From Nitrospirota bacterium (lineage in GTDB: Bacteria; Nitrospirota; Thermodesulfovibrionia; Thermodesulfovibrionales; Dissulfurispiraceae), in assembly GCA_963790025.1 (NCBI GenBank), contig CAWBMP010000004.1:640001-704000 (forward strand): a stretch of DNA of 64,000 bases. The letters run 5' to 3'. The notes beneath the pieces are model-generated. The model was not told the origin of the DNA and ran no database searches. It worked only from the letters and a program-made list of their open reading frames with translations. The translations under genes were made by a program, and so were the position numbers. This document shows positions 5,030 through 28,187 of this stretch, piece by piece (the first letter of the stretch is position 1; every line of letters begins with the position of its first letter).

Positions 5030-5407
5030 TTATGTAAAAAATTCATCGTCCTCAAACATGGGATAGTGCTTTCTATTCATCGTCCAGAGCTTGAAAACAT
5101 TTATTTTTGCGGCTGCACCAACGAGCGCATCAGCCATAGTCACAGAATGCGACTTGCCATAGTCCAGAAGGAACTGACCGGCGAGTTGACCCGTCCTCTT
5201 GTCTATGCCAAGCATATTCAGCGAGTCAATAAATGTCTCAACCCTGACCTTTTCTTTAAGCCGAATGCCGGAATAGATTTCCGTCACCTGTACCGGCGTC
5301 ATAAAAACATGGCCGCAGGTTTCTCTTATAACTTCTTTAAAGCGCTCAACCAAAGCCTTGTCCTGCCGCAGGACCCAAAAGAGGATGTCAGTGTCGGCTA
5401 CGAGCAA
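5030..5407 (-). CDS. vapC: PIN-domain toxin (VapC family)
   Basis: DTDIL, TEIYSG, MADALVGAAA, TMNRKHY. Confidence 0.85.
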   Translation of the reverse strand: MLVADTDILFWVLRQDKALVERFKEVIRETCGHVFMTPVQVTEIYSGIRLKEKVRVETFIDSLNMLGIDKRTGQLAGQFLLDYGKSHSVTMADALVGAAAKINVFKLWTMNRKHYPMFEDDEFFT

Positions 5408-5637
5408 ACCTTCCGGTCCTTGCGCACTTTACGCATAAACTCATCCACATCGAACCGTCTGTTCCTCCAGAGACCGCTTGCGCTGTCAGTGGCCCTGATC
5501 ATCATTTCCACCCTGCCGCTCAATTTTTTTTGCACGCTATCACGGATAATCTCAGATATTGAGATGCCTTTGAGCTTACTTTCTCTTTTCAAATTGCCAC
5601 AGGTTTCGTCGTCGATATAGATTTGAGTTCGTTTCAT
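5398..5637 (-). CDS. Ribbon-helix-helix (CopG-like) antitoxin
   Basis: MKRTQIYID...ISISEIIR; GGAGG SD before ATG 5637; overlaps the toxin start. Confidence 0.8.
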   Translation of the reverse strand: MKRTQIYIDDETCGNLKRESKLKGISISEIIRDSVQKKLSGRVEMMIRATDSASGLWRNRRFDVDEFMRKVRKDRKVCS

Positions 5638-5866
5638 AAAGCTGCCTCCGACATGATGTATATATACATTATATTTCGCGGGTAACTTCAAAAACAATGG
5701 ATGCAAGACAAATTTTTTGCCCGGGACTACTGAGGTCGCTTTGGAAATCATTCCGGTTTACATGATCAGATATTTTCAGACGTCCGCCTTTGATAATTCA
5801 TGGCAACCTTTCTGAACCGCCTCAAACGCAGTAACCGCAAAGAAAGTCCCGCTATCTTATTTTTAG

Positions 5867-5910
5867 GGCATGAGTGGAGGACAGAAATATTTTCGTCCTC
5901 CATTCATGCC
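5867..5910. terminator. Strong hairpin, probable terminator
   Basis: GGCATGAGTGGAGGAC...GTCCTCCATTCATGCC inverted repeat. Confidence 0.5.
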
Positions 5911-5950
5911 GTGCGCCTCCCTGCTGCGGCTATTGCCGGATGATCTTCAG

Positions 5951-6481
5951 TTATATTCCCAAAAGATTTATTGAGCGGTTGTGCTCATCCCTCCAGTTTG
6001 CCAACCATAATTGAACAGCAGCCAATGAGGCAAAACACTTTTCTTTAAGAAGGTCCCTAATCAACTTGTTCTTGAACAATAAGCCATAGCCGTTCTCCCG
6101 GTATTTTCTCAACTCCACGAAAGTGCTGCTAAGCTCAAGTTTTTCCAGCCATTCGGAAATGACATTAGGTATTGAGTCGTTGTCAGTGAAGACAAAAAGA
6201 TGTTTTGGAATACCTATATGCAGAAAGAGACTGAATAGCTCATCGATCACATTTTGAGTGGTTATATGATCGGCAGCGCGGCTGCGCAAACATTCCTGTG
6301 TATGTTCGTCGAAAAAAGTTAAAATCGTGATGACCCGCCCATGAGCCGTCAGCATAGTTATTAAATGGCAACTCCAAACAACGTTTTTCATTTGAGGGCG
6401 GCGCTCCAGGCACGAACTGCCCCTCCTATTCCATCTCGTTTCTGTATTTAAACATTCGTTTCCAGATATGTTTTTTTTCAT
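5951..6481 (-). CDS. Degenerate IS3-family integrase-core (rve)-like protein
   Basis: NVVWSCHLI...GRVITILTFFDEHTQECL...GIPKHL..TDN...NWRDEHN resembles IS3 OrfB; first Asp and the Glu appear substituted. Confidence 0.6.
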   Translation of the reverse strand: MKKNISGNECLNTETRWNRRGSSCLERRPQMKNVVWSCHLITMLTAHGRVITILTFFDEHTQECLRSRAADHITTQNVIDELFSLFLHIGIPKHLFVFTDNDSIPNVISEWLEKLELSSTFVELRKYRENGYGLLFKNKLIRDLLKEKCFASLAAVQLWLANWRDEHNRSINLLGI

Positions 6482-9649: not shown

Positions 9650-10528
9650 ATGCTCAACAATGCCACTTTAAAAATCGCAGTGAGCGGAGCCACAGGTTTC
9701 ATCGGTAAGAATCTGACCTCTTCCCTGGAAAAAGATGGGCACAAGGTAACGCCGCTTCCATCGGAAACATTCAATCTTCCGGAAGCCGACTTCATTGGCC
9801 TTATAAAAGACCATGATGCAATTATCAATCTTGCCGGAGCGCCGGTTCTCTCACGTTGGACCGATGATTACAAGAAAAAACTCTTTTCGAGCCGTATCGG
9901 TTCAACACGAAAAATTGTCGGTGCAATTGCGGCGCTTACTGAACGACCGACTACGTTTATCTCTACCTCTGCAATCGGCATCTATACGTCCACGGGTGTC
10001 CATACGGAAGACAATAACGTTCTTGCACGTAACTTCCTGGGCGATCTTGCAATGCATTGGGAAGGCGAAGCATTAAAAGCAAGGCCTCTCGGCGTAAGAA
10101 CTGTAATATTCAGGCTCGGCGTAGTGCTCGGCAAGAATGGCGGCGCGCTGAAGGTCATGCTCGCGCCTTTCAAAATGGGCTTGGGCGGTACTATCGGGAG
10201 CGGCGCTCAGGCATTCTCCTGGGTGCATATGGAAGACCTGAAAAGAGCTTATTCCCTTGCACTTATGGAACCATCGTTCGAAGGTATTTTCAACCTCACA
10301 ACTCCAAATCCGGCTACGAACAGGGAACTTACAAAGGCTGTTGCCGATGCTCTTGGTGTAAGCGCTGTCCTGACGGTCCCCTCTTTTGCACTTAAGTTTA
10401 AATATGGGGAAGGCGCAAGTGTTTTAACTGAAGGCCAAAATGTTCTGCCAAAGCGCTTGCTCGAGTATGGTTTTACCTTCATGTTCAGCGATATCCAAAA
10501 CGCCGTAAAAGACTGTCTTGAAGTGTGA
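9650..10528 (+). CDS. TIGR01777-like NAD-dependent epimerase family protein
   Basis: SGATGFIG, INLAGA, GLGGTIGSG, SWVHMED, GQNVLPKRL. Confidence 0.9.
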   Translation: MLNNATLKIAVSGATGFIGKNLTSSLEKDGHKVTPLPSETFNLPEADFIGLIKDHDAIINLAGAPVLSRWTDDYKKKLFSSRIGSTRKIVGAIAALTERPTTFISTSAIGIYTSTGVHTEDNNVLARNFLGDLAMHWEGEALKARPLGVRTVIFRLGVVLGKNGGALKVMLAPFKMGLGGTIGSGAQAFSWVHMEDLKRAYSLALMEPSFEGIFNLTTPNPATNRELTKAVADALGVSAVLTVPSFALKFKYGEGASVLTEGQNVLPKRLLEYGFTFMFSDIQNAVKDCLEV

Positions 10529-10554
10529 CATACTCTTCTTAGCAGGATACTGCA

Positions 10555-10745
10555 ATATTCTTAAAGATGCCGGTCTGATCAAGGATAGAAAACAGGGCAA
10601 ATGGATCGACTGCAGCCTGCATGACTCGGATATGTTCAGGAGATTCTTAATCCTTTCTGTCCTGGAAAAAATCTCTGCCGGATCAGTGGCTATATCACTG
10701 GTTCTGGTGATTGCTTATAAGCTGCACGAAATGGGGGTCTTATGA
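10555..10745 (+). pseudogene. Chimeric remnant: 3' part of arsR fused in frame to the last ~22 codons of hgcA
   Basis: ILKDAGLIKDRKQGKWI...MFRRFLILSVLEKIS matches ArsR 26340..26681; GSVAISLVLVIAYKLHEMGVL* matches the HgcA end GSVIVSLLLVLVYKLNEWGIV*. Confidence 0.85.
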
Positions 10746-10837
10746 AATATTTGTCAAATGTTGCAAGCCTGGTATTTGTGGAAGAGAAATGTACCGGTTG
10801 CGGCGATAAAGATACGACCGGCGGCGGATGTTGTTGA
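10742..10837 (+). pseudogene. hgcB: Internally deleted hgcB (31 codons)
   Basis: MKYLSNVASLVFVEEKCTGCG joined to DKDTTGGGCC*, versus intact MKYLSNVVSLVFSAEKCTGCG...CGCGDSENGGCC*; same ATGA overlap with the hgcA stop. Confidence 0.85.
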
Positions 10838-10887
10838 TTCATTCTCAACTCATTTACAATTTCTCGCCTCTGCCTTATACTATTTTT

Positions 10888-21218: not shown

Positions 21219-21908
21219 TCATGATTTGTGTTTCTCTGCAACTTTCTTTCTGATCTCCTCCATCTTCTTCGAGAAATCCTCTTTTTGTCTTCGCTCTGTT
21301 TCATCCTTGGGCTCGAAAACAGGGTTAGTCACTTTCCATGTGAGCTGGGCGCTGATCGGACTTTCAGGATATGCTCCGATATCGTAAAGCGTCTGCCCAT
21401 CGAACAGAGTTGGCGTTTCCTGATAACAGGAACATACGGCCTTTCTTAGGAGATCAGGGGTACCGCGGTTGAGCAGATCGATGACTGAAACTATCTGTTT
21501 TCTGAAACGCTCGACAAATTCAATAGGGAGGTTGAAGAGATACGGCGTAGGCGCCGTGGTGTTCCTGATTCTCTTGCGCTCATCAACGCCGTCTTTCAAC
21601 AGTGACTTTATGGCTTCACCCGTCGAATGACCCGGGGACTCGGGTCCAGTCAGCACAAGATAGCGGATATTTGGATTGCCTATGATATTGCAGATCATCT
21701 TTTCGATGCCGATGTTTTCGGTCTGTATCGTCCCCGATATCGCAGAGCCAGCCTCGACGCCGGTTCTGACGAGCAGTTCTATGTCCTTCGGAATTTTGTC
21801 TTCGTCATAGATCAGTATAACCGCGACAGCTACAGGAGAATAATCGTTTCCTCTTAGATATCGGCCTTCTTCAGTCGGATAATCGGGTGACGGCTTAACC
21901 TTGAGCAT
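21219..21908 (-). CDS. MtrA-like corrinoid protein (tetrahydromethanopterin S-methyltransferase subunit A family)
   Basis: SPVAV, GTIQTENIGIEKMICNIIGNPNIRYLVLTGPESPGHSTG, VERFRKQI. Confidence 0.85.
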   Translation of the reverse strand: MLKVKPSPDYPTEEGRYLRGNDYSPVAVAVILIYDEDKIPKDIELLVRTGVEAGSAISGTIQTENIGIEKMICNIIGNPNIRYLVLTGPESPGHSTGEAIKSLLKDGVDERKRIRNTTAPTPYLFNLPIEFVERFRKQIVSVIDLLNRGTPDLLRKAVCSCYQETPTLFDGQTLYDIGAYPESPISAQLTWKVTNPVFEPKDETERRQKEDFSKKMEEIRKKVAEKHKS

Positions 21909-21963
21909 ACAATTCTCCCTTTATTGGTTGCGAATGAGGTCTAACATCGACCTCTTTAACGCG

Positions 21964-22257
21964 TCAACAACAGCCGCCATTTTCAGAGTCGCCGCAACCA
22001 CAGGACGGTTCTCCGCCTGTAATCATGCTCCTGATAAGTGCCGAGGCGCATCCAACGCCAGCTTCGACTTCCAACGCTCCAAATTCACAGTTATTGGCGC
22101 AAGCGCCGCATTCCATGCAACGGTCGATGTCGATGACGCGCACCTTCTTACCGTTCTTCTCAAAGACAGCATGCGGGCAGACTTCAATACAAGTCCCGCA
22201 GCCCGTGCATTTTTCTGCGGAGAAAACCAAACTCACTACGTTCGATAGATATTTCAT
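21964..22257 (-). CDS. hgcB: Mercury methylation ferredoxin HgcB
   Basis: CTGCGTCIEVCP, CMECGACANNC, GVGCA, terminal CC; ATGA overlap with hgcA. Confidence 0.95.
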   Translation of the reverse strand: MKYLSNVVSLVFSAEKCTGCGTCIEVCPHAVFEKNGKKVRVIDIDRCMECGACANNCEFGALEVEAGVGCASALIRSMITGGEPSCGCGDSENGGCC

Positions 22258-23312
22258 ACAATCCCCCATTCATTAAGCTTATACACTAAAACAAGTAGAA
22301 GTGATACTATCACTGATCCTATGTAAAAAGGCATCGCTATCCGCAACTCTTTTTTAACCCCTGACATGCCTGTAAATGTTGTTGAGCCGGTGAATTGAAG
22401 CGCTACATATGAGCTAGCGGCAGGGAAGAAGAGACACGCGGCTCCAAAAAGGACCCATGCATGTATAAAGTAAGACCTTAGAATATGCCCTGTAATTACG
22501 ACTGAAAGTGCACCCGTTATCCATCCCTTTATCGCAAAAGACCTGAATGGAACAAATGGGAGCATGACAGGGGTAATTAAAGCGCCGCTCAAGACCGCAA
22601 TGAATCCAATAAGCAAGAACGGCATTCCACCTGACCACGCCTTGCTGAATATGATGCCTGAAGGAGTAAGCCCGAACAAAACCAGCATGGTCAGAGCAAA
22701 AAGAGGATAATTCTTCATAGCTGGAATGATCTCCATAGGAGTAAGAATGAGTCTATCCCAAACCGGAAACTTTACTAAACTCATTTCATCAGTCTTCCGG
22801 TATCCGGCGCTGAGATATGCCGGTATGTCCTTGGCGTTTACAGGTCCGAAATGCACTTTAAATCCGGTCACCTTATGTACCTCCCTCGCATTCACTCCGG
22901 GAGCGCAAAGCTGGGGCGCTATAATCCTCTTGTGATCCACAACATCCTGTAGCCGCGCCTCACGAATCCTCTTTACCAATTCATTCGTGCCAAACGTCCC
23001 TTTTCCGGCAGCACACCAGACATTGATTCCTTTAGTGTCCAAAACAAGTATCCACGCATTCAGTCCCTTCAAACTTCTGCGGAGTATGTCGAAACTCAAT
23101 TTGTAATTGGCGCTTGCGAACACGTCCGAATCCCTGCCCGGTTCTCCGAGGGCATAGAGTCCAGGTTTGACTATGTAGCTCATCCGCAACCCGCTGATTC
23201 TGCATTTCACCTGTCCCCAAATATCGGAATGTGACCACTCTGATGATGTTTTTGATATTTCTGGTTGCTTATCAGGACAACAGAGAGGGATTATGGCAAG
23301 CTTGTTCTGCAT
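22254..23312 (-). CDS. hgcA: Mercury methylation corrinoid protein HgcA
   Basis: ANYKLSFD, cap-helix GINVWCAAGKGTFG, C-terminal TM helices, FTGSTTFT. Confidence 0.96.
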   Translation of the reverse strand: MQNKLAIIPLCCPDKQPEISKTSSEWSHSDIWGQVKCRISGLRMSYIVKPGLYALGEPGRDSDVFASANYKLSFDILRRSLKGLNAWILVLDTKGINVWCAAGKGTFGTNELVKRIREARLQDVVDHKRIIAPQLCAPGVNAREVHKVTGFKVHFGPVNAKDIPAYLSAGYRKTDEMSLVKFPVWDRLILTPMEIIPAMKNYPLFALTMLVLFGLTPSGIIFSKAWSGGMPFLLIGFIAVLSGALITPVMLPFVPFRSFAIKGWITGALSVVITGHILRSYFIHAWVLFGAACLFFPAASSYVALQFTGSTTFTGMSGVKKELRIAMPFYIGSVIVSLLLVLVYKLNEWGIV

Positions 23313-23313
23313 T

Positions 23314-24699
23314 TTACCGGGCCTCCCTGCGCCTATCGTCGGATAGACGGATTTCTCTATTCCACGACTGGGCGGCCATTTGCACAGGGTCCCAGGGGCT
23401 GGAGAGTGGCGGTGTATAGCTGAGATCCAGGTCGTTCAATGCCTCCACGGGCATCCCATTATGAACTGCAGCAGCCACCGTGTCGATACGCTTAGAAACC
23501 TCTGTGCCATAAGTGCCGATGATCTGCATGCCCAGAAGTTTGCGTGTTTTTTTATCGCCTGTGATGCGAATTCGCAATTTTTCCGCGTGGGGATAATAGA
23601 ACTTATGGTCCCAAGTGTCAATATCCACAGACAAGGGAGAAAACCCTTCTTTCAGGGCTTCATCGTCTTTCAGGCCTGTCCGTGCAGCAACAAGATTGAA
23701 AATCTTAACGGATTGGGTTCCCAAGGTACCGGTATATTCTCGATTGCCGCCTACTGCGTTTTCACCGGCTACGCGACCCTGTTTATGAGCAGTAGTGCCC
23801 AAGGGCAGGTATGTGTTTTTCCCAAGCAGCCGGTGAAAGGTTTCCACACAGTCTCCCGCTGCATAAATATCAGGAATGGAGCTCTCCATTCGCCGATTGA
23901 CGCAAATCGCGCCCTTAACGCCGGTTGCGATACCCGCAGATTGGGCCAGACGGGTTTCCGGTCGGCTGCCTACAGCCACGAGAACCATATCGGCAGTAAT
24001 AGCATCTCTAGCTGAGCGCACAGAAAGCGAACGTCCAGTGGATTCGATCTGTTTCACACTAAATTCGTTGAACACCTGAACACCATTTTTTTCCAATTCC
24101 GTCCGCACGATGCTACCCAAGGCAGGATCAAAAGTTGTTAGAACGGAAGGTGCAAATTCGACTACTGAAACGGAGAGACCTCGTAGCTTCATGGCATCGG
24201 CCATTTCCATACCGATATAACCTGCACCGATAATGACGATAGAGGCAGGACTACGAGCAGTGAGGTATTCCTGAAACGCAAAACTGTCTGCCATCCATCT
24301 AAGAAAAAAGACGCCGGGAAGATCGATGCCGGGAAGATTCGGTATAAGAGATTTGCCTCCGGTACCTATAACAAGCCTGTCGTAAGAAAACGTCTTGATA
24401 TGGCCTCCAGTATCAGTAGCAACTATTTGTTTTCGGTCAGAAATGATGGATGTGACACGATGCTGTGTCACAACTTTGACCCCTTCTTTTTCAATTTCAT
24501 CAGCGGTGCGATGAGCTAATGCTTTCCAGTCTGGAACCTCACCACTCAGATAAAACGGAAGACCGCAGATACTGAAATTAGGATATTGGTCTGCCAGGAT
24601 CATGGTGACTTCTGTATTGGGCTCCAATTCTTTGACTCGAAGGCCTGCGCTGATTCCGGCATCACTGCCGCCGATAATTACTATTTTTTCAGGTTTCAT
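23314..24699 (-). CDS. CoA-disulfide reductase / NADH oxidase-family flavoprotein
   Basis: GGSDAG, NFSICGLP, GAGYIG, AAGDC, DLSYTPP. Confidence 0.88.
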   Translation of the reverse strand: MKPEKIVIIGGSDAGISAGLRVKELEPNTEVTMILADQYPNFSICGLPFYLSGEVPDWKALAHRTADEIEKEGVKVVTQHRVTSIISDRKQIVATDTGGHIKTFSYDRLVIGTGGKSLIPNLPGIDLPGVFFLRWMADSFAFQEYLTARSPASIVIIGAGYIGMEMADAMKLRGLSVSVVEFAPSVLTTFDPALGSIVRTELEKNGVQVFNEFSVKQIESTGRSLSVRSARDAITADMVLVAVGSRPETRLAQSAGIATGVKGAICVNRRMESSIPDIYAAGDCVETFHRLLGKNTYLPLGTTAHKQGRVAGENAVGGNREYTGTLGTQSVKIFNLVAARTGLKDDEALKEGFSPLSVDIDTWDHKFYYPHAEKLRIRITGDKKTRKLLGMQIIGTYGTEVSKRIDTVAAAVHNGMPVEALNDLDLSYTPPLSSPWDPVQMAAQSWNREIRLSDDRRREAR

Positions 24700-24776
24700 A
24701 TTGTGTCTCCTGAGATCTTTTTTATCTTGAAGAAGATTATATCCGCGATAATGCCTCCAAGGACTTCGAGCCTCAT
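24696..24776 (-). pseudogene. 26-codon mini-ORF, probable deletion scar (small thioredoxin-like start joined to another gene's end)
   Basis: AGGAGA SD, MRLEVLG-GIIADIIFFKIKKISGDTI*; TGA overlaps the next ATG. Confidence 0.5.
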
Positions 24777-24804
24777 AACTATCTCCTATGAAATAATATA
24801 TTTA

Positions 24805-25875
24805 TTATTCAATACTCGTATTTTTTATTCTGCAATATTCGACGGTAAAATATTTTTTCTGGAAACGTAGTGCGACATTTACAAGTCCAATCAGTACCGG
24901 CACTTCCACAAGGGGACCTATAACGGCTGCAAAGGCCGCTCCGGAGTTAATACCGAATACTGCCACGGCAACGGCTATGGCGAGCTCGAAATTATTGCTT
25001 GCAGCAGTAAAGGACAGAGTTGCCGTTTTTGCGTAATCGGTGCCGATTTCTCTGCCCATGTAGAATGAAACCAGAAACATGACTACGAAATAAATCAGCA
25101 GAGGTATCGCTATACGAATTACATCCAGGGGGAGCTTGACGATATAATTCCCCTTCAGGGAAAACATAATAACAATTGTAAAAAGGAGAAAGATAAGTGT
25201 AACAGGACTGATTTTAGGTATAAATACCTGCTCATACCATTGACGACTCTTTAGCTTCAGAAGACTGAAACGGGTTATCATTCCTGCTATGAAAGGAATC
25301 CCAAGATAGATGAAAACGCTTTCCGCTATCTGCCCTATCGTCACTTTCACAACAACACCTTTGAGTCCGAACCACGCCGGGAGAATAGTTATGAATATAT
25401 AGGCATACACCGAGTAGAAAAGCACCTGAAAGATAGAATTAAATGCAACAAGTCCGGCAGCATATTCGGGATCACCGCAGGCAAGATCATTCCATACTAT
25501 AACCATGGCAATGCAACGGGCCAACCCTATCATTATGAGTCCGACCATATATCCCGGATAGTCATGCAAAAAAATAATTGCCAAAAAAAACATTAATATA
25601 GGACCAATGATCCAATTCTGAATAAGGGACAACCCAAGTACCTTTTTGTTCTTGAAGACTTCACCCAGTTCCTCATATTTGACCTTTGCAAGAGGAGGGT
25701 ACATCATGAGTATAAGACCAATAGCAATCGGTATATTGGTGGTCCCGACCTGAAAGCTGTTTATCAGGCCCTCCACTCTGGGCATAAAATAGCCTAGACC
25801 CACACCCAGCGCCATGGCGGAAAATATCCACAAGGTGAGATAGCGGTCAAGAAAAGAGAGCTTCTTATTTTCCAT
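24805..25875 (-). CDS. acr3: Arsenite efflux transporter Acr3
   Basis: [46 protein letters not shown]. Confidence 0.96.
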
Positions 25876-26305
25876 ACTGTTCTTCCTCTTTAAGCCAGTG
25901 CTCTATGCGAGACTTGATCTGGTCCCTTATTATTCGCGCGCCCTTCAGTCGTTCCTCATGGGTCCCCTTGAGTTCGGCAGGATCTTCAAAAGGCCAGTTA
26001 AGCCGCTTTACTACACCCGGGAAGATAGGGCACTGTTCAGCGTTTGCATCATCACAAACAGATATCACATAGTTATAGAGCTTTCCAGCCTTATAGAAAT
26101 CAAATGCGCTCTTTACCTTATTGTTAGATATGTCATACCCTGATTCTTTCATCACTTCAACAATCAGGGGATTCAATGTGCCAGGGGTTAGCCCTGCGCT
26201 TTCGGCAACAAATCTGTCACACGCCAGCTCATTCAAAAATGCCTCGGCCATTTGACTACGTGCCGTGTTATGAACGCACACAAATAAGACTCTGGTCTTT
26301 TTCAT
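25865..26305 (-). CDS. arsC: Arsenate reductase (LMW-PTPase type)
   Basis: [16 protein letters not shown]...CP, FEDP. Confidence 0.92.
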
Positions 26306-26339
26306 TTTCTTCCTCCTCCCAACGGCAGCGGGTTAACTT

Positions 26340-26681
26340 CTATGCGCAGCAGAGCCCATTTTTAGTTTTGGCGAATTCATTCAATCGTCTCTGGTCTTCC
26401 CCGACCGATTCAGAGGAGATTTTTTCCAAAACAGAGATAATCAAAAATCTCTTGAACATATCCGAATCATGGATACTGTAATGAATCCACTTCCCCTGTC
26501 TTCTGTCCTTGATCAGTCCCGCGTCTTTCAGGATTTTGAGGTGGAAAGATACCTTGGGCTGGACCATATCGAGTGCGGCAACAATATCGCATACGCAAAG
26601 TTCTCCATTTTCGAGGAGCTTTAGTGTTCGGAGCCTTGTCTCATCAGAGAGGGCCTTAAAAACAGTAACCAAATCGTTCAT
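26340..26681 (-). CDS. arsR: ArsR-family repressor
   Basis: FKALSDETRL, ELCVCD, VSFHL, terminal CC. Confidence 0.93.
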   Translation of the reverse strand: MNDLVTVFKALSDETRLRTLKLLENGELCVCDIVAALDMVQPKVSFHLKILKDAGLIKDRRQGKWIHYSIHDSDMFKRFLIISVLEKISSESVGEDQRRLNEFAKTKNGLCCA

Positions 26682-27274: not shown

Positions 27275-27355
27275 ATGTCATTGGAAAGCGCTCAGCAATT
27301 CGTGTCAAGGATGAAATCGGACAAGAACTTCAGAGCTAAGGACAGTAGAGGGTAA
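27275..27355 (+). pseudogene. Truncated Nif11-like leader-peptide gene
   Basis: GAGGAGG SD; MSLESAQQFVSRMKSDKNFRAK resembles Nif11-type leaders, then stops at the junction with the integrase fragment. Confidence 0.6.
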
Positions 27356-27599
27356 AAAGCCAGATGATTGGATATTCACACTAAAAGGTCAACCGTATGG
27401 TTGCAACTGCCTTTATAGGGCATGGAAGAAAGCCTGTAAAAATGCGAGGGTGAAGCATATATCGCTTCAACAGGCATCGAGACATAGCACAGCATCGAGA
27501 ATTATGAAAAAGGCCAAGGATGAAGCCCTGAAACGCATACAGGCACGGCTAGGTCATAAAAACAAGTCAACTGGAAAGAAGCACTACGTCATAGAATGA
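27345..27599 (+). pseudogene. C-terminal fragment of a phage-type tyrosine integrase
   Basis: WIF...AWKKACKNARVKHISLQQASRHSTAS...IQARLGHKNKSTGKKHY*; no start; ends 88 nt from the tRNA 3' end. Confidence 0.8.
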
Positions 27600-27687
27600 A
27601 ATTTCACCGAACAGCTACCGAACGTAAAACCAGGCTCAAAAAGCACTAATATTTAGAAAAAGTCAAATAAAACAAGGAAAAAAAGAA

Positions 27688-27762
27688 TCGGGGCGAGCCG
27701 ATTCGAACGGCCGACCTCTCGCACCCCAAGCGAGTGCGCTATCCAGGCTGCGCTACGCCCCG
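27688..27762 (-). tRNA. tRNA-Pro(GGG)
   Basis: CGGGGCGTAGCGCAGCCTGGATAGCGCA-CTCGC-TTGGGGT-GCGAG-AGGTCGGCCGTTCGAATCGGCTCGCCCCGA; CCA not encoded. Confidence 0.95.
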
Positions 27763-28187
27763 AAATGATGATGGAGTATTTCTTTTAGTCTCGATTTTAC
27801 CATGGCAAGAATCTTTTCAGCGTCTGCAGAAACTCCGGCGTTTACTTCGGCATCATCCGTGCAACTTTTCGCATCCAGCTGTTCCGCACCACTGCCAAGC
27901 TTTCGCCTGACGCCGTCAATAGTATATTTTTCCTCATATAAAAGATGCTTGATCTTCTTTATAAGGTCGACATCGTTCTTTGCATATATCCTTTGCCCTG
28001 TCTTGCCCTTCCTCGGATTAAGGAAAGAAAACTCTGTCTCCCAGTACCGCAGCACATAGGCTTCAACGCCTACAAGCCTGCTGACCTCTCCTATTTTATA
28101 AAAGATTTTATCTGGAAAAAGTTTGAGCGGCTCGGGCGACCCATACTTATCCTGCATCATCAGCTCACTGCGAGTGTTTTCCGGCAA
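27753..28187 (-). CDS. MerR-family HTH regulator (ihfA-linked)
   Basis: YKIGEVS...VLRYWETEF...YTIDG. Confidence 0.9.
   Translation of the reverse strand: MPENTRSELMMQDKYGSPEPLKLFPDKIFYKIGEVSRLVGVEAYVLRYWETEFSFLNPRKGKTGQRIYAKNDVDLIKKIKHLLYEEKYTIDGVRRKLGSGAEQLDAKSCTDDAEVNAGVSADAEKILAMVKSRLKEILHHHFGA

Follow-up and report, generated by a model that had tools for sequence, protein, structure and literature searches.

The Nitrospirota genome G000 (98.8% complete, 5 contigs) contains, 11 kb away from an intact operon with arsenic and mercury-methylation genes, a relic of 285 bases in which fragments of arsR, hgcA, and hgcB are joined to each other in established order, strand, and frame. With a probability of about 0.65, we regard the relic as a dead second arsR...hgcA-hgcB operon, which probably derives from a sister Nitrospirota lineage and was likely cut down at short repeats in three or more deletions. 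The analysis suggests repeated gain, exchange, and loss of mercury-methylation genes in this lineage. Coordinates refer to the window, the whole stretch of 64,000 nucleotides that was analysed, unless another contig is named. The relic comprises:

10553-10837, + strand: the collapsed arsR/hgcA/hgcB fragments as a whole
10553-10679, + strand: arsR relic, codons about 49-90 of 113
10680-10745, + strand: hgcA relic, the last 21 codons and the stop (residues 332-352)
10742-10804, + strand: N-terminal part of the hgcB relic, codons 1-21, ATGA overlap with the hgcA stop
10805-10837, + strand: C-terminal tail of the hgcB relic, ending in GGCC-stop

The intact operon, with which the pieces were compared, comprises:

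21219-26681, - strand: arsR-arsC-acr3-reductase-hgcA-hgcB-mtrA-like operon
26340-26681, - strand: intact arsR, upstream of hgcAB
within 23314-26681, - strand: arsC, acr3, and a CoA-disulfide-reductase-like gene, upstream of hgcAB
22254-23312, - strand: intact hgcA, NF040863 above cut-off
21964-22257, - strand: intact hgcB, NF040864 above cut-off

The sequence-only reading had described a 3' half of arsR, an hgcA end, and an hgcB start in ATGA overlap with it; this is what the relic contains, except that the hgcA piece has 21 codons plus the stop instead of about 22. The alignments proposed there are significant. In a blastn search of the own genome, 10553-10675 matches the intact arsR at 26538-26416 (79%, E 2e-23; 94 of 120 bases equal over the arsR relic), and 10680-10803 matches the hgcA end, the ATGA overlap, and the hgcB start at 22319-22196 (68%, E 5e-5; 45 of 66 bases equal over the hgcA relic). 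When HMMs built without the proteins of the window were run on the 160,473 six-frame segments of the genome, the ArsR piece (E 1.5e-19), the HgcA tail (E 3e-4), and the HgcB start (E 6e-14) were each significant genome-wide on their own. The observation is therefore real. The HgcB tail was not among the best 8 genome-wide matches of its own HMM (E up to 5.4) and is thus assigned by its position; an in-frame GGCC-stop terminates three of the 160,473 segments. HgcA ancestry is visible in the C-terminal transmembrane tail that overlaps the hgcB start, and HgcB ancestry in the HgcB-type N-terminus, which breaks off inside the first half of the first 4Fe-4S motif, together with the terminal cysteine pair (CC-stop). 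The named relatives of the ArsR and HgcA in the window carry the Nitrospirota label.

The split of the two copies is not recent. Most of the differences between relic and intact copy are found at third codon positions (43 of 67, binomial p 2e-7), with 4, 3, and 19 differences at positions 1, 2, and 3 in arsR, 8, 3, and 10 in hgcA, and 3, 3, and 14 in hgcB, and synonymous sites are saturated in arsR and hgcB. The relic is therefore not a recent duplicate, as had been argued from the sequence alone, and the even spread across codon positions that marks a pseudogene of recent duplication is absent. In the 40 codons of the arsR piece, 6 amino-acid differences are observed compared with 17.7 expected under neutral decay, and none of 10,000 neutral simulations gave as few as 6. 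These are too few changes for neutral decay, and thus both copies diverged as working genes. Decay itself is slight. The arsR relic has two changes at near-invariant positions of the wing, H to D and Y to C, and neither D nor C occurs there in any of 124 homologues. A weaker sign is the W to M change in the hgcA tail, W being found in 111 and M in two of 119 intact HgcA tails. The 92 codons of the relic contain neither stops nor frameshifts. The loss of the relic operon is recent compared with the split of the two operons. By eye, the Y to C change completes a short inverted repeat at 10611-10621, which template switching could produce.

Of the 21 HgcB residues in the relic, 20 are identical to P0129 and P0126, 18 to the intact copy, and 12-15 to eight genus-mates, and the 11 best of 300 HgcB for these residues all come from one small clade. 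In the tree, the groups of which were named after the identities had been inspected, the relic HgcB groups with the intact HgcB in a starred clade (100/97) and adjoins P0004/P0129 (99/76, unstarred). We dropped a reading of the relic as the hgcAB native to the genus on the identities (12-15 compared with 18-20 of 21) and the tree, while the AU test did not reject a placement inside the genus group (p 0.062). The hgcA tail shows no preference for the clade: among the best 25 matches listed, five of seven clade proteins share 11-12 of 21 residues with it, and P0240 from another branch shares 14. The relic arsR adjoins the genus-type arsR group (95/76, unstarred). Concerning the HgcA of P0142, the N-terminal part is unlike the clade and the C-terminal part belongs to it, so that it is either recombinant or a chimeric assembly.

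The closest intact donor, or an intact second copy in relatives, which the sequence-only reading had proposed to look for, did not turn up in the GTDB contigs (best 67%), the 317 genomes of the order (best besides G000 67%, to P0004), the 401 genomes of the phylum, or the viral contigs and plasmids. The metagenome contigs contained only L066 (1,378 bases), which is close to the intact copy. In this closest metagenome relative of the intact hgcA, a TAG is present five codons ahead of the usual end (L066:201-267). Judged by identity, the HgcB clade of relic and intact copy has no other carrier among the 317 genomes of the order. Two hgcB matches on separate contigs were observed in both G155 (C278, C303) and G279 (C26, C267), which could be two hgc loci or binning noise. 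Because no intact donor locus was found, we infer both the linkage of arsR to hgc in the relic and the repeat at its first join.

The two loci might also descend from an old duplication of arsR...hgcAB, within this lineage or on one donor island, followed by a long period with two working copies and then the loss of one. This is unlikely but the most serious of the alternatives. Both copies pair a genus-type arsR with hgcAB of the same rare clade, they lie only 11 kb apart in inverted orientation, and a sister relation of relic and intact arsR is not rejected (AU p 0.37). However, pS between the relic and the intact arsR is 0.81, above the 0.46-0.60 between the intact arsR and those of genus-mates, and the duplication would therefore predate the radiation of the genus. 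The base identities have the same order, the intact arsR sharing 101-103 of 120 bases with genus-mates compared with 94 with the relic. Furthermore, a second hgcB is found in no genus-mate, and the relic hgcB is closer to P0129 than to the intact copy.

A separate history of the hgc genes is also apparent from the comparison with the genus. In the rpoB tree, which is based on this one marker gene and has 11 rows (G003 and G006 left out), G000 is nested in the genus as sister to G005 and G007 (98/100). hgcA is present in eight of the nine genus-mates. In the HgcA tree, from which G007 was left out, the seven unbroken genus-mate sequences form a starred clade, and the HgcA of the window belongs to a separate starred clade of metagenome proteins; AU tests on its placement, for 25 of the 45 rows and with groups likewise named once the identities were known, gave p 0.0024 and 3e-64. 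The intact hgcA and hgcB belong to the same rare clade. The conflict between the HgcA and the rpoB tree points to horizontal acquisition of the intact hgcAB and, judging from these trees, the rare hgcAB clade is foreign to the genus. Upstream of hgcA, seven of the eight hgcA-bearing genus-mates encode hgcC, and the three of these that were scanned pass NF040962:

L049:6535-6828, L051:11758-12048, L053:9425-9715, and L055:9228-9521: hgcC (AbrB-like, NF040962) upstream of hgcA
L060:6318-6611, L062:9798-10082, and L047:11969-12262: hgcC (AbrB-like, NF040962) upstream of hgcA

Two queries gave no hgcC match in G000. There is thus an apparent swap of the regulator, the genus-mates having hgcC and both hgc loci of G000 following arsR. 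At the site where G005 and G007 encode hgcAB, a site that varies among the genus-mates, G000 has unrelated DNA, and no trace of the genus-type module was found there. G000 contains three copies, at 98% identity, of an 875-base block that carries two tandem related membrane-protein genes (C5:264784-265658, C4:1606457-1607331, and C4:862553-863417), and one of these copies sits at this site. Several further irregularities were observed in relatives. The hgcA of G007 (L058:9400-10557), which has no hgcC, is split over three frames and is either a pseudogene or affected by sequencing errors. The ars operon of G007 also looks collapsed, a broken arsR directly preceding the mtrA-like gene (L301:7005-8084), as does that of G008, where acr3 residues 1-32 abut residue 268 onward (L057:8418-8777). 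The hgcA genes of G021, G035, G027, and G016 (L002, L003, L005, L006) each contain one in-frame TGA, which we take to be expected for a selenocysteine-type HgcA.

The relic and the intact operon are both part of a patchwork, extending from position 1 to 27.6 kb of the window, the genes of which are scattered in the genus-mates. Its right edge is given by:

27315-27599, + strand: integrase remnant, PHROG integrase E 5e-8
27687-27763, - strand: tRNA-Pro(GGG), predicted by ARAGORN

The integrase remnant adjoins the 3' end of the tRNA gene, of which 33 bases recur as an exact repeat on the same contig at a distance of 576 kb (G000:C4:1243416-1243448). At 5030-6481, a pair of a PIN toxin and a ribbon-helix-helix antitoxin is followed by an IS3-like transposase remnant. 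Within the intact operon, the reductase gene (23361-24776) is 91% identical to that of G002 compared with 82-84% for its neighbours, which hints at a later exchange.

If the arsR piece had one source and the hgcAB pieces another, unlinked one, with illegitimate recombination bringing them together, the relic would have no bearing on linkage. For such an origin speak the missing donor, the frequent lack of linkage between hgcAB and arsR, or a downstream position of arsR, in genus-mates (G002, G006, G008), and the rarity of an arsR-like gene within 4.5 kb, found in only seven of the 55 GTDB hgc loci with sufficient upstream DNA. However, order and strand in the relic match the intact operon as well as the layouts in G010 and G294, relatives that have the ArsR subfamily of the relic upstream of hgcAB. 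In addition, divergence from the intact copy is about the same for the arsR piece and for the hgc pieces, and a single deletion is the simpler explanation. An origin from unlinked loci is thus improbable. The claim that the lineage held two divergent ars-hgc loci and lost one is supported, and the arsR and hgcAB pieces of the relic would probably come from a single operon.

The edges and joins of the relic and its left neighbour are located as follows:

9650-10528, + strand: intact TIGR01777 (YfcH-type) oxidoreductase gene, left neighbour, NCBIfam above cut-off
10529-10556, + strand: left break (at about 10548-10556), arsR codons 1 to about 48 and the promoter gone
10680-10688, + strand: join 1, arsR to hgcA, in frame, at similar E-S-V / G-S-V codons
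10796-10804, + strand: join 2, first CxGCG to terminal CGCG, in register, inside hgcB
10849-10881, + strand: right edge, genus-mate orthology resuming 11 bases after the hgcB stop

Two deletions had been proposed. The promoter and the first 48 or so codons of arsR are missing too, which requires a third break and gives at least three. Between the yfcH stop and the arsR relic, about 20-25 bases have no assignment, and a C-D-I triplet at 10524-10532 resembles by eye arsR codons 32-34, possibly by chance. The left neighbour yfcH was found in none of the nine genus-mates at E<=1e-40. On the right side, the matches of G004 and G001 start at 10849 and 10848, and a promoter-like site of the next gene is located at 10853-10881 (10 of 12 consensus).

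That both joins fall at short similar sequences, as had been stated, stands for join 2. Here, the second cysteine of the first CxxC is fused to the second cysteine of the terminal CxC, leaving one G-C-G codon run where homologues have two, as in a deletion between microhomologies in a donor that would have had both. The two cysteine sites are spaced by 204 bases in 152 of 160 hgcB genes, 16 of the 160 have exact in-register repeats of 7-9 bases between them, and the 11 bases of the relic at the join equal the C-terminal motif of the intact copy. A position of join 2 at homologous CxGCG and CGCG codons is well supported by these comparisons, and its formation would have removed 204 bases (68 codons). 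For join 1 the statement holds less well: with the intact genes as stand-ins for the donor, six of eight bases are alike (rough chance 0.5%). The loss at join 1 would amount to at least about 1.07 kb, or to 4.09 kb if the layout was that of the intact operon.

Contigs from two public sequencing runs of different studies bear on these joins. X1 is fragmented into 57 pieces over 19 kb at depth 2-5 and may be the source sample; X2 (word share 0.15, depth 2) contributes solely 258 identical bases. Of the junctions for which spanning sequence had been proposed as a check, the left edge is bridged by contigs of both runs with zero differences and join 2 by an X1 contig, and the locus is therefore broken whatever join 1 is. 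No contig of the public runs covers 10678-10753, which includes join 1, and in both X1 and X2 the contigs stop at 10677, two bases short of it. The rough chance of this coincidence is 1.5%, and the 30-mer before this position is unique in the genome. The shared end could be a fork to a second allele or chance at depth 2-5. It would fit a join 1 that is an assembly collapse or still segregating, in a population that also has a longer arsR-hgcA allele. However, the depth is low and X1 is fragmented, no loose ends were seen, and the 120 best matches contain no HgcA with a relic-like tail (best 14 of 21). We therefore consider such an artefact or polymorphism very improbable.

The relic itself is most likely inert. 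It has neither the corrinoid-binding domain nor the cap-helix cysteine that are described as defining or required for HgcA (PMC7305189). From the two CxxCxxCxxxCP motifs and the conserved Cys73 given for HgcB in the same source, only the CxxC of the first motif remains, and there is no Pfam hit. A working ArsR has a complete winged helix-turn-helix and an N-terminal metal site; in the relic the recognition region is gone, and NF033788 scores 23.7 bits against a cut-off of 55. Without corrinoid domain, 4Fe-4S site, and DNA-binding helix the relic would therefore neither methylate mercury nor repress.

It is hardly conceivable that the 31-residue HgcB stub, which is called as a gene in this assembly and combines a start context, the CxxC, and the terminal cysteine pair, was kept as a thiol peptide that binds Hg or As. 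Such a mini-HgcB might be under selection and translated by read-through from yfcH, as an Hg/As-binding peptide or as decoy partner of the intact HgcA, and would then be a new gene to which two in-frame deletions in a methylation operon gave rise; this version is just as remote. The idea gains from two in-frame joins without any stop, from the 20 of 21 N-terminal residues identical to an intact homologue, and from the proposal that the terminal cysteine pair of HgcB carries Hg (PMC7305189). However, in-frame joins follow from joining like codons, the stub has no promoter of its own, and 1.84 billion representatives contained only the peptide itself and an unrelated protein of 2,294 residues. 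The collapsed form was found in none of the 316 other genomes of the order, with a pattern that also matched intact hgcB out of frame and is thus not fully specific.

For the dead second operon, the following course of events may be envisaged. The G000 lineage would have lost or replaced the hgcC-hgcA-hgcB of the genus and then held two arsR-linked hgcAB operons of one foreign clade. With working hgcAB and ars genes 11 kb away, the second copy may have become redundant and been trimmed by deletion bias. One deletion would have taken the promoter and the 5' half of arsR, another the end of arsR, any ars genes in between, and most of hgcA, and a further one, through slippage or microhomology end-joining at the two G-C-G codon runs (processes described in PMC6054270), 204 bases of hgcB.

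Linkage of arsR or ars genes to hgcAB loci has been published (McDaniel et al. 2020, PMC7438021; Gionfriddo et al., 10.1101/2022.10.17.512643), and the carriers named by the latter include Nitrospira. The order in the relic fits a second case of arsR-hgcAB linkage, but the novelty of such a case had been overstated, given the many taxa with this linkage, including Nitrospira, G010, and G294. The interest therefore lies in direct evidence of hgc turnover. As in the described ArsR/SmtB-linked loci, arsR is found upstream of hgcA-hgcB on one strand; by contrast, the case here is a dead remnant beside an intact sister operon, and its arsR belongs to the subfamily that heads arsC-acr3 operons in the genus. 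The spread of hgcAB has been argued from deep trees, with vertical descent and widespread loss on one side (PMC10083202) and transfer on the other (PMC7438021), and no report of an hgcAB remnant was found in the literature searched. G000 shows turnover at the scale of a species: the module of the genus is missing, a foreign hgcAB is part of an ars operon, and a second arsR-linked copy is in the middle of its deletion. This favours the view of hgcAB as travelling together with arsenic genes, the regulator changing from HgcC to ArsR, and warns that the ability to methylate mercury and its control are not readable from taxonomy.

Compared with the genus-mate hgcC-hgcA-hgcB (HgcC, NF040962), the intact genes of the window have the same function in the same genus. 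However, the genus-mate HgcA are of a different clade, with 58-61% identity to that of the window compared with 74% between G004 and G005, and the gene upstream in this module, which was not found in G000, is AbrB-like instead of arsR. The full-length fused HgcAB and HgcAB-like proteins (NF043039; Lin et al. 2023, PMC10083202) likewise have rearranged hgcA and hgcB side by side, but the relic has two frames with an ATGA overlap and all catalytic parts are gone. With the microhomology-eroded pseudogenes described by Danneels et al. (2018, PMC6054270), the relic shares the deletion bias, the short repeats at the joins, the tendency to in-frame intervals, and the short retention in free-living bacteria. 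Those are small indels, whereas here deletions of 204 bases and of over 1 kb fuse pieces of three genes. The relic is an ordinary but real molecular fossil, and its value is the direct evidence that it gives of hgc turnover.
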